From the IMG/VR virus record IMGVR_UViG_2778261452_000001: a stretch of DNA of 42,376 bases. One strand, 5' to 3'. Made by a program: the position numbers and the translations under genes. This document shows, one piece after another, positions 32,154 to 34,035 of the stretch. The notes beneath the pieces are model-generated. The model saw only the letters and a list, made by a program, of their open reading frames with translations, was not told the origin of the DNA and did not search any database. Numbering within the stretch: the first letter of the stretch is position 1; each line of letters begins with the position of its first letter. Origin of the DNA: a virus (lineage: Duplodnaviria > Heunggongvirae > Uroviricota > Caudoviricetes).

Positions 32154-32948
32154 ATGACAGCACAAAATACTAAAACCATTCAATACCGCCTACGTAATGG
32201 CCAGAGTGTCGAAGTGACCATCAATAATGATGGAGTGCCAGGCGAAAAGGTTTCTATCTCTGATCTGGCTATCGAAAAAACCATCATGTGCCACCTTGGC
32301 TTTACTGAAGAAGTGAGCAAAAAGCATGGTGTAGCTATCTGGCGAACAATGGATACTGGCATGCGCAGATTCATTACCGCTCGTACCCCAGGTATGACCA
32401 TGATGGACCTCATGCAGATTGCACCGCTGTTTGAGTGTGAACCTTTGGATGTATTCAGCAATCCAGCTATCTGCCAGCAGTTATATGGTGAGATGAAACT
32501 CGCTGTTACCCCCATTGTGCTGCATGAAGGATCGCTTGCTGGCGTATGGAAAGTAGAGCGAATTTCAAGCTACATGCCCTTCCACATCCATGTCAACGGC
32601 GTAATCGCAGGTGAAAATCAACCTGTTTCAGTTACAAAGTCAGACCTCAAGCGCGCAATTCTTGAAGCAAGTTGTCGAGTTATCGGCCTTGGCAAACAGT
32701 CTTATGTTTCCTTCCCGGCTGGCCCTGAAGGCCCGGCAGAAATTCTGATTATGGATGCCGATCTGCTCTGGCAAATACAGTTTCTGATTGGCAAAAGCAT
32801 CATCCGCGCTGAAGAACTCGATCAGTACATTACCTGCACGATGACAGATGAAGTCAAAAGTGTGGCTATAGCCAAGGCCCGGAACCTGTGTCGTGCTGCA
32901 TTAACAGAACTGCAAGAAAACACCACGGAAGAGGTGGAAAGTGACTAA
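32154..32948 (+). CDS. hypothetical protein, first gene of two-gene insert
   Basis: 264-aa ORF; no recognisable motif; 3' end overlaps next gene start by 8 nt. Confidence 0.55.
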   Translation: MTAQNTKTIQYRLRNGQSVEVTINNDGVPGEKVSISDLAIEKTIMCHLGFTEEVSKKHGVAIWRTMDTGMRRFITARTPGMTMMDLMQIAPLFECEPLDVFSNPAICQQLYGEMKLAVTPIVLHEGSLAGVWKVERISSYMPFHIHVNGVIAGENQPVSVTKSDLKRAILEASCRVIGLGKQSYVSFPAGPEGPAEILIMDADLLWQIQFLIGKSIIRAEELDQYITCTMTDEVKSVAIAKARNLCRAALTELQENTTEEVESD

Positions 32949-34035
32949 TCGTATACAGAATGAACCTGCCTGGTTAGCACTGATAGAACAGTATAAAGAC
33001 AATTGGGAACTGGCAGCGAAAGAGTTGCTTGATATTGAGTTAACACCTCATCAAGCAAAAATTATTAACGCGATAAAGAACACCGGAGCCAAAGTCACTG
33101 CCACCACACCACATGGTATTGGGGAAACCTCTATTGTGGCAGTGATTAGCATCCTGCAAACAATACTGTATTCGTGTTCCCGTACAGTGGTTGTTTCTCC
33201 TGCTATTAACGATAGTCGAAAAACAATAATTGACTATATGTTCCGTTATTGGGAGCGAGTTACCCAAAAACACCCTTTTCTTGGCAATCATTTCAGAATG
33301 CACCCTGACAAAGGGTTGGTGCATATCAGTGAAATATGGGGATGCGTCTATATAACCTATTGTCTGAATAACGAAGTGTCTCTGGCTGGTTTTACTGGAC
33401 CGCACGATCTTTTCATCGTTATTAACTCGGCGGAAATCAGCGATCGCGCTCATGCAGTGATAACTGGCAATTTAACCAATTATGACTCGCGCCTGCTGTT
33501 GCTGTCGAAACCATCGGAACGCGAGAAAGGGTACTTTTATGATTCGCATCACCGGTTGGCCCATAGTAAAAACAATCCTGCTGGTTTTTTCACGGCGATA
33601 ACTCTAAACACAGAGGATTCACCTCTCGTTTCTGAAGCATATCTTGAATTCAAAGCCAAAGAGTTTGGTGGGCGCAATAGCGATGAATATCGCCGATTGA
33701 TCTTGGGGAAATTTCCCGGGATTCGGGAGTTGATGGAAAAGTCATCTGTTCCCCGTAATATGCACTTCACAATGACTGACGGTAGTAAATGGGTAGTGCC
33801 TACGATCGTGATCGCCAAACACCATGCGAAACATCACGCTCAAAAACACAACTCCAGCACATTAGACTGGCTGAAGGCCTATACAATACCGTTATTCTCG
33901 GCAAACCATAACGCTATAGCTGAATGGGCTAAACAAATCCCCTGGCAGGATGTGGCTGAAGAGGCATTTGTCGAAAAACCACCAAGAGATTTGCACGAGC
34001 ACTGTTGGCTGACATCAGAAAAGAGCTTCTCGTGA
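32941..34035 (+). CDS. PacB-like terminase-ATPase paralogue with degenerate Walker motifs, lacking nuclease domain
   Basis: 364-aa ORF (GTG start); aligns to PacB 12733..14217 N-terminal ~260 aa (e.g. DSRLLLLSKPSEREKGYFYDSHHRLAHSKNNPAGFFTAITLNTEDSPLV vs [48 protein letters not shown]); Walker A HGIGET (K to E), Walker B IVINSAE (DE to NS). Confidence 0.7.
   Translation: MTNRIQNEPAWLALIEQYKDNWELAAKELLDIELTPHQAKIINAIKNTGAKVTATTPHGIGETSIVAVISILQTILYSCSRTVVVSPAINDSRKTIIDYMFRYWERVTQKHPFLGNHFRMHPDKGLVHISEIWGCVYITYCLNNEVSLAGFTGPHDLFIVINSAEISDRAHAVITGNLTNYDSRLLLLSKPSEREKGYFYDSHHRLAHSKNNPAGFFTAITLNTEDSPLVSEAYLEFKAKEFGGRNSDEYRRLILGKFPGIRELMEKSSVPRNMHFTMTDGSKWVVPTIVIAKHHAKHHAQKHNSSTLDWLKAYTIPLFSANHNAIAEWAKQIPWQDVAEEAFVEKPPRDLHEHCWLTSEKSFS

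Follow-up and report, generated by a model that had tools for sequence, protein, structure and literature searches.

A putatively non-catalytic, nuclease-less copy of the PacB ATPase domain encoded behind isaA in P1-like phage-plasmids

Introduction

What purpose does a second, truncated version of the large terminase subunit serve in a phage that already encodes the complete enzyme? This question is raised by a 42,376-nucleotide stretch of DNA (IMG/VR virus record IMGVR_UViG_2778261452_000001, Caudoviricetes; hereafter the window) from a P1-like phage-plasmid that carries pacA/pacB, c1, cre, darB, prt, pro, lyz, ssb, hxr, ddrB, and darA in P1 order. Downstream of ssb (31468..31956, plus strand; 100% amino-acid identity to P1 Ssb), it contains two overlapping plus-strand open reading frames (ORFs), namely isaA (32154..32948, ATG start, 264 amino acids [aa]) and a GTG-initiated gene of 364 codons (32941..34035), whose product we call PacB' and which we accordingly denote pacB'. 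An earlier note on this DNA, made from the letters alone, had located both ORFs correctly and had read them as a two-gene insert encoding a catalytically degenerate paralogue of PacB. No proteins of tailed phages are more conserved than the large terminase subunits (TerL), which are also a main target of bacterial pattern-recognition immunity, and P1-type phage-plasmids are important carriers of resistance genes. Here, we describe what PacB' is, where it occurs, and what it might do.

Results

We found PacB' to be clearly related to the PacB encoded in the same window (12733..14217, plus strand), a bona fide large terminase subunit of 494 aa with a nuclease domain that served as our reference, with 35% identity over 269 residues (BLASTP, E=2e-54). 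The N-termini of the two proteins are of the same length and match position by position, in support of the GTG start of pacB', and the non-catalytic motifs GYFYDSHH, EDSPLV, GGR..Y, and G.FP are common to both, as are the fold-defining positions of true PacB (G59, G61, W104, G150, G197-F199-Y200, H204, S227-P228, G243-G244, Y250, and G256-F258). Similarity peaks in residues 151-262 (45-49%), compared to 23-28% in residues 1-150. Upon judging the motif columns in a 112-sequence alignment of PacB-type terminases, we observed that the Walker A lysine column, which is 100% Lys in 110 TerL homologues, holds Glu62 in PacB', as the earlier note had proposed (SGHGTGKS in PacB, TPHGIGET in PacB'; the degenerate motif TTPHGIGET spans residues 55-63, 33103..33129, plus strand), and that a 99% Gly column of the same motif holds Pro57. 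In the degenerate Walker B motif (LFIVINSA, residues 157-164; 33409..33432, plus strand), Ile161 takes the place of the Asp and Asn162 that of the catalytic Glu. The note had rightly seen that both acidic residues are lost, while its register was off by one, the proper pairing being IIDEAS of PacB with IVINSA. The His152 that is invariant in this alignment is Thr in PacB'. Finally, PacB' ends ~130 residues short, and where the nuclease domain has its invariant Asp residues, the alignment shows gaps or Tyr/Asn; the nuclease half is indeed missing, and an unrelated domain of ~95 aa is found instead.

An AlphaFold2 (AF2) model built from the 112-sequence alignment had a predicted local distance difference test score (pLDDT) of >90 for residues 10-260 and low confidence in the tail, and its best Foldseek matches in the PDB and among viral models (BFVD) were the TerL ATPase domains of Sf6 gp2, HK97, P74-26, T4 gp17, and D6E. 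Sequence searches of the PDB with PacB' or with a profile of its clade gave no match, so that the link to solved terminases comes from structure comparison only, and sequence searches of Pfam, NCBIfam, and PADLOC gave no match for PacB' either. Codons 1-262 (32941..33726, plus strand) are thus confidently predicted by BLASTP, AF2, and Foldseek to encode a TerL ATPase fold of the PacB type, the similarity to PacB being significant and the catalytic residues being lost once correctly aligned, and PacB' reads as a non-catalytic, nuclease-less copy of the PacB ATPase domain. The gene lies ~19 kb from pacA-pacB, directly after isaA. In databases, its product goes under 'hypothetical protein', with two phage records calling it 'terminase large subunit'; this second label should not be used, because the Walker A Lys, the Walker B pair, the nuclease domain, and the linkage to a small subunit gene are all missing.

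PacB' belongs to a family of such proteins. A HMMER search of 1.84 billion cluster representatives yielded 624 relatives of PacB', the nearest of which are not terminases but form ~10 clusters (counted at 50% identity; 34-48% identical to PacB'), every one of them devoid of the catalytic residues. Across this pseudo-ATPase clade, the Walker A Lys position is occupied by E, H, R, M, R, R, T, I, C, and T, and the Walker B pair by IN, MD, VN, TD, DN, DN, LH, PD, PN, and PQ; as far as the alignment tells, the former active site varies freely, without constraint. That the Walker A Lys and Walker B Asp/Glu columns hold unrelated residues in each lineage speaks against PacB' being a still-active ATPase with unorthodox motifs, an idea that, together with that of a functionless relic of a pacB duplication considered below, we regard as highly improbable. 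In a neighbour-joining tree, the degenerate proteins formed one clade among the PacB-type terminases (95/100 bootstraps), with monophyly at 55/100 once the motif columns were removed, and a sister grouping with the P1 PacB subclade was unsupported (14/100). The simplest history, judging by these sequences, would be one old duplication of a PacB-type gene, followed by loss of catalysis and of the nuclease domain and by long persistence.

Many members of the family are ~260 aa long and end a few residues past the G.FP motif that closes the ATPase domain. In the P1-like Citrobacter freundii plasmid NZ_CP114569 (locus L037, 3333-4789), a 263-aa member with the motifs TTPSGIGCKH / FFICPNANSL is located between ref and mat and overlaps (ATGA) the stop codon of the gene for a Ref-family HNH recombination-enhancement nuclease. 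On IMG/VR contig 3300013827_000026 (L041, 4640-6660), a 444-aa member with a different C-terminal extension of ~180 aa stands directly after a 116-aa ORF (phrog_3797) and ahead of a LysM protein, amid Ead/Ea22 and DUF551 genes typical of lambdoid early-left operons; this member had no match in deposited phages or E. coli genomes, and no PacB was seen within 5 kb of it. Tight coupling to an upstream gene therefore recurs across the family with three unrelated partners. Scans of viral, genome, and metagenome contigs for the contexts of P0144, P0145, P0150, and P0195 gave no match, and P0146 had no counterpart in deposited phages or E. coli genomes. A 268-aa protein of another terminase lineage, P0179, has Ser at the Walker A Lys and SK at the Walker B pair, possibly an independent second case of a pseudo-terminase and possibly a product of misalignment.

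We found pacB' to be intact and widespread among P1-like genomes. Among 5,426 complete E. coli genomes, 335 carried isaA and 100 carried isaA with pacB', nearly always on plasmids, which places pacB' in ~2% of these genomes and in ~30% of isaA carriers, with isaA lacking pacB' in about two thirds; in PLSDB, pacB' was present in 120 plasmids (Escherichia, Salmonella, Klebsiella, and Shigella). The 23 P1-type loci contained 16 distinct pacB' alleles, 0 of them with a stop codon. A second pacB' lineage was found in D6-like phage-plasmids, 52% identical, of equal length, and with the same C-terminal domain. There, pacB' overlaps an isaA homologue (47% identical) by 11 nt, and the pair has another genomic location, flanked by dut and a Tad2-like gene on one side and by humD on the other. 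Overall, isaA was directly upstream of pacB' in 33 of 35 loci, the exceptions being a contig end and one truncated isaA. At an IMG/VR locus (L009, 1956-3186), pacB' follows only the last 48 isaA codons, the sole case that we saw without a complete isaA.

Selection has kept the gene in place. When compared with the most diverged alleles (E. albertii, dS 0.13-0.16), the ratio of nonsynonymous to synonymous substitution rates (dN/dS) was 0.30-0.36 for pacB', 0.10-0.11 for isaA, and 0.07-0.09 for ssb. pacB' is under purifying selection, with a protein that evolves ~3x faster than its neighbours, and isaA is under strong purifying selection. Lost catalytic motifs and a dN/dS above that of the neighbours (0.3 vs 0.1) are what a relic of a pacB duplication would display, but the ORF is intact in every locus examined, the 52%-identity orthologues have kept the same length, the predicted fold is confident, and the clade comprises ~10 clusters. 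pacB' is selectively maintained and is not a pseudogene.

As to the notion of a two-gene insert, comparison with reference P1 led to a different outcome. Starting upstream of ssb, the window matches P1 (NC_005856) at 97% until one base beyond the isaA stop, and the match resumes at hxr. As this match runs through isaA, the upstream gene is P1 isaA rather than a new gene (phrog_2326; same position 3' of ssb; 97% nucleotide identity up to the stop and 96.6% amino-acid identity), and only the second gene differs from the reference. The 1.1 kb between the isaA stop and hxr have no match to NC_005856, in which the slot after isaA holds 95 bp, IS1, and isaB; the pair thus lies between ssb and hxr/ddrB at the isaA-IS1-isaB position of P1, where the earlier note had put it. 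We examined whether P1 isaB could be a 3' remnant of an IS1-disrupted pacB' and ruled this out, as the two have zero nucleotide or protein similarity. Because the 95 bp, IS1, and isaB resemble pacB' at neither level, P1 carries a different cassette and not a pacB' broken by IS1. A duplicated pacA-pacB operon as the source of isaA-pacB' was ruled out as well, IsaA being without similarity to PacA.

Gene orders in related elements showed the same slot to be variable. We found the order ssb, Tad2-like gene, isaA, hxr in SJ46; ssb, Tad2-like gene, isaA, 95-aa ORF, hxr in Ro157c2YLVW; and ssb, Tad2-like gene, isaA, pacB' in an E. albertii plasmid. pacB' is an optional gene in the slot 3' of isaA in P1-like and D6-like phage-plasmids. 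The slot corresponds to the variable region RD-2 of P1-like elements (PMC6906374, PMC9603915), described in pJIE250-3 as '2 orfs including putative phosphohydrolase', and comparative papers on P1-like elements treat the region only as variable. In 11 of 12 D6-type loci and 6 P1-type loci, isaA was immediately preceded by a Tad2-like (PF11195) gene, and the Dar antirestriction operon adjoins pacB' on the other side. The Tad2-like protein is ~230 aa long, with the domain (formerly DUF2829, Thoeris anti-defence) at its C-terminus, and is encoded at two genomic positions (for example L020, 4527-5213, and L036, 1512-2213; also L006, L008, L015, L044, and L045).

IsaA itself gave little to go by. 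Searches of Pfam, NCBIfam, and PADLOC found nothing for it, as did sequence and profile searches of the PDB, and its AF2 model, built on a shallow alignment, was too poor to use (pLDDT 41). In P1, isaA is non-essential by CRISPR interference (PMC10695390).

The expression signals of the locus suggest early, C1-controlled synthesis of PacB'. In agreement with the translational coupling that the earlier note had described, pacB' overlaps isaA by 8 nt, GTGACTAA (32941-32948), and a Shine-Dalgarno sequence, AGAGGTGG (32930-32937), is located inside the 3' end of isaA, the element with its GTG start reading as 32930..32943 on the plus strand. Further upstream, the ssb promoters P2ssb/P1ssb and the C1 operator Ossb (Op21; ATTGCTCTAATTAATTT at 31432-31448), together spanning 31403..31465 on the plus strand, are base-for-base identical to the annotated P1 region (L001, 1496-1576). 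Between ssb and isaA-pacB', a sequence scan revealed neither a promoter-like site nor, on the plus strand, a terminator-like one. In the gap where pacB' and hxr converge, a GC-rich, terminator-like hairpin (34041..34064, plus strand) with a perfect 10-bp stem, AAATCCCGCC GATT GGCGGGATTT, is probably a bidirectional terminator. Given the P1-identical C1-controlled promoters, the lack of an intervening terminator, and the hairpin after pacB', we infer that ssb, isaA, and pacB' share one transcript, which the lysogen would keep repressed and which induction would switch on early. pacB' hence appears to be transcribed with ssb from a C1-repressed promoter.

This mode of expression bears on whether the two genes form a prophage abortive-infection or exclusion pair, in which PacB' would sense the packaging proteins of an invader and release or activate IsaA as the effector. 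While two overlapping genes in a variable island, mobile as a pair between two genomic sites, would suit such a system, there is no promoter-like site between ssb and isaA from which a lysogen could make the pair, and the upstream promoters are C1-repressed. Furthermore, the defence hidden Markov models of PADLOC-DB 2.0 gave no match for PacB', IsaA, or two other family members, and isaA is far more conserved than pacB' (dN/dS 0.1) and usually occurs without it, unlike the partners of a sensor-effector or toxin-antitoxin pair. We therefore consider this explanation very unlikely.

A role in packaging, which was the idea of the earlier note, has more in its favour. PacB' might bind PacA, PacB subunits, or the portal, and thereby, as a motor-dead subunit, time or limit the phage's own packaging, or poison that of co-resident or co-induced P1-like rivals or hijackers. 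The nearest catalytic relatives of PacB' are P1-group PacB proteins (34-44% identity). The lid subdomain of solved terminases forms ring contacts, and by analogy it may be this part that is best conserved in PacB', whose similarity to PacB is highest in residues 151-262. Yet reference P1, SJ46, and most isaA-bearing plasmids package normally without pacB', so that pacB' is no required packaging regulator, and its apparent expression only after C1 derepression argues against an exclusion of superinfecting phages from the lysogen. PacB' is, moreover, uniformly identical to all PacB variants (33.9-35.4%), with no sign of rival-specific targeting, and the related member in the lambdoid-looking region had no PacB in sight within 5 kb. 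On balance, we deem interference with packaging unlikely. The surroundings of the gene bring in two candidates that the note had not raised, namely DNA metabolism and counter-defence.

The C-terminal part of PacB' points elsewhere. Codons ~265-364 with the stop (33733..34035, plus strand) encode a separate small domain that matches the C-terminus of phrog_17928 (E=9e-15) and the free-standing ~100-aa proteins P0257 and P0288, and its last ~95 aa contain a DGSxW hairpin, a AKHHAKHHAQKH helix, and IPLF..HNAI.EWAK. No Pfam family covers it. An eroded nuclease domain was ruled out by the gapped catalytic columns together with the homology to free-standing small proteins and to the phrog_17928 C-terminus. 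In Xanthomonas phage CP2, the domain is fused to DUF1351 (L042, 1274-2809) near DUF2303, Erf, exonuclease, endonuclease, and SSB genes, and the P1-like Cronobacter phage JK004 encodes it as a gene of its own (L043, 3001-3297), two genes 3' of a DnaB-like helicase gene. To judge by this company, it has the appearance of a portable adaptor used in modules of early DNA metabolism.

It is accordingly conceivable that PacB' is a non-enzymatic scaffold of replication, recombination, or repair that binds DNA or other proteins and that works, in early lytic DNA metabolism, with IsaA or a Ref-type HNH nuclease and, via its C-terminal domain, with SSB, a helicase, or recombination proteins. In addition to the homes of the C-terminal domain, with Erf, exonuclease, and SSB in CP2 and behind the DnaB-like helicase in JK004, the apparent co-transcription with ssb, the 263-aa member that overlaps the stop of a Ref-family nuclease gene, the D6-type copies between dut and humD/hot, and the position of the T4 terminase paralogue vs.8 next to denV are all in line with this idea. 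All of this is neighbourhood evidence, however, and as ssb, ref, and humD belong to the fixed backbone of P1 and border known hot spots of insertion, lying next to them may indicate no more than a permissive site. As pacB' is also dispensable and patchy, and no DNA-binding motif was identified in its product, we find such a scaffold rather doubtful.

Discussion

The degenerate motifs suggest that PacB' probably acts by binding rather than as an enzyme. Since normal ATP binding or hydrolysis and DNA cutting would both be beyond it, PacB' would have to act by binding something that recognises the PacB ATPase fold. We tentatively favour the possibility that this recogniser is the host's terminase-sensing immunity, with PacB' as a counter-defence terminase mimic, although even this explanation is in our estimate less probable than its being wrong. 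With the C1-repressed ssb promoter driving its gene, PacB' would be produced early in the lytic cycle, ahead of the late terminase, and would occupy host sensors of the terminase ATPase domain, such as the Avs1-3-type STAND proteins and Upx. Lacking an ATP-loaded active site, it would cause these sensors to fail to lock on and oligomerise, so that their response would be blunted by the time that real PacB appears, with IsaA and the C-terminal domain of PacB' as possible partner or adaptor. Published work showed that the terminase ATPase domain alone activates EcAvs2 and Upx, and that EcAvs2 seals the interface through a bridging ATP that contacts the terminase-bound ATP and magnesium (PMC13601566). 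What we count in favour of a decoy, speculatively and by analogy, is the fold, the loss of catalysis across the clade, the maintenance of the gene, its early C1 control, an accessory neighbourhood of the conflict type, and the plausibility of the target. By extension, P1-like and D6-like phage-plasmids and some temperate phages might encode dead terminase-ATPase mimics that blind Avs1-3 and Upx, a generalisation that we put forward with considerable doubt.

Several points weigh against a decoy. Without an ATP-loaded site, PacB' might just not bind the Avs-type sensors, in which case it would not block them either. A term search of a compendium of 268 anti-defence proteins yielded no terminase mimic. 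The variable upstream partners (IsaA, Ref-family nuclease) and the replication and recombination homes of the C-terminal domain would fit DNA metabolism at least as well, and the position of P1-group PacB as the closest catalytic relatives would also suit interference with P1-type packaging. Furthermore, the ssb-isaA-pacB' operon, on which early synthesis depends, is a structure deduced from sequence signals, and the window has no Tad2-like neighbour, with a 197-bp ssb-isaA spacer instead.

Comparison with known systems helps to delimit what is particular about PacB'. With P1 PacB it shares a homologous N-terminal ATPase fold, and its clade nests among the PacB-type terminases. PacB' differs in lacking the Walker A Lys, the Walker B Asp/Glu, His152, and the RNase H-like nuclease domain, in having gained an unrelated C-terminal domain, and in its genetic setting, as its gene lies apart from pacA, outside the terminase operon and downstream of an early promoter under C1 control, and is dispensable and absent from reference P1. 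The closest described analogue is T4 vs.8 (L047, 10254-10913, 219 aa), a stand-alone, ATPase-only paralogue of gp17 that is likewise encoded away from the packaging genes, in an early/accessory region adjoining denV. It differs from PacB' in that its Walker A (GRQSGKS) and Walker B (IIDEP) motifs are both intact and in that it has no extra C-terminal domain. A BLASTP comparison of vs.8 with PacB' found nothing meaningful, and because the two have no sequence similarity, they are independent duplications in separate terminase lineages. vs.8 also triggers EcAvs2 (PMC13601566), so that paralogues of this kind are visible to terminase-sensing immunity. Ksap1 and Ksap2, which we compared by description, resemble PacB' in being phage accessory proteins described as having structural similarity to the terminase ATPase; they are non-terminase activators of KpAvs2/EcAvs2, that is, triggers and not inhibitors, and occur only in Dhillonvirus and Stephanstirmvirinae phages (PMC11564622, PMC13601566).

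For a role in packaging, the precedents would be different ones. Ppi of the Staphylococcus aureus pathogenicity islands (SaPI) and Rpp of the phage-inducible chromosomal islands (PICI) interfere with packaging by binding a terminase component, not by catalysis, in the conflict between mobile elements. Unlike the phage-encoded PacB', Ppi and Rpp are satellite-encoded, target the small terminase subunit, and are not terminase homologues.

In the literature searched, we found no description of a PacB paralogue or of a terminase pseudoenzyme, nor, as the earlier note had supposed, of a function for pacB'. Among that literature, the PacB' group would be the first terminase pseudoenzyme family described, which would mean that phages re-use the terminase fold for a purpose other than packaging. 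If PacB' is an immune decoy, it would be the first anti-defence protein that copies the very viral protein that the host recognises. Whichever target it has, PacB' offers a handle on how P1-type phage-plasmids compete and evade defence, on the purpose of isaA and of the RD-2 variable region, and on ATPase-only terminase paralogues such as T4 vs.8, and pacB' is frequent enough for comparative and genetic work.

The remaining surroundings of the locus in the window can be described briefly. Downstream of pacB', hxr (34067..34375) and ddrB (34365..37352) are encoded on the minus strand. The res-mod restriction-modification genes of P1 (RD-1) are absent from the window, since the stretch between cre (16247..17278) and darB (20885..27652) contains only three ORFs, of ~200-220 aa each.

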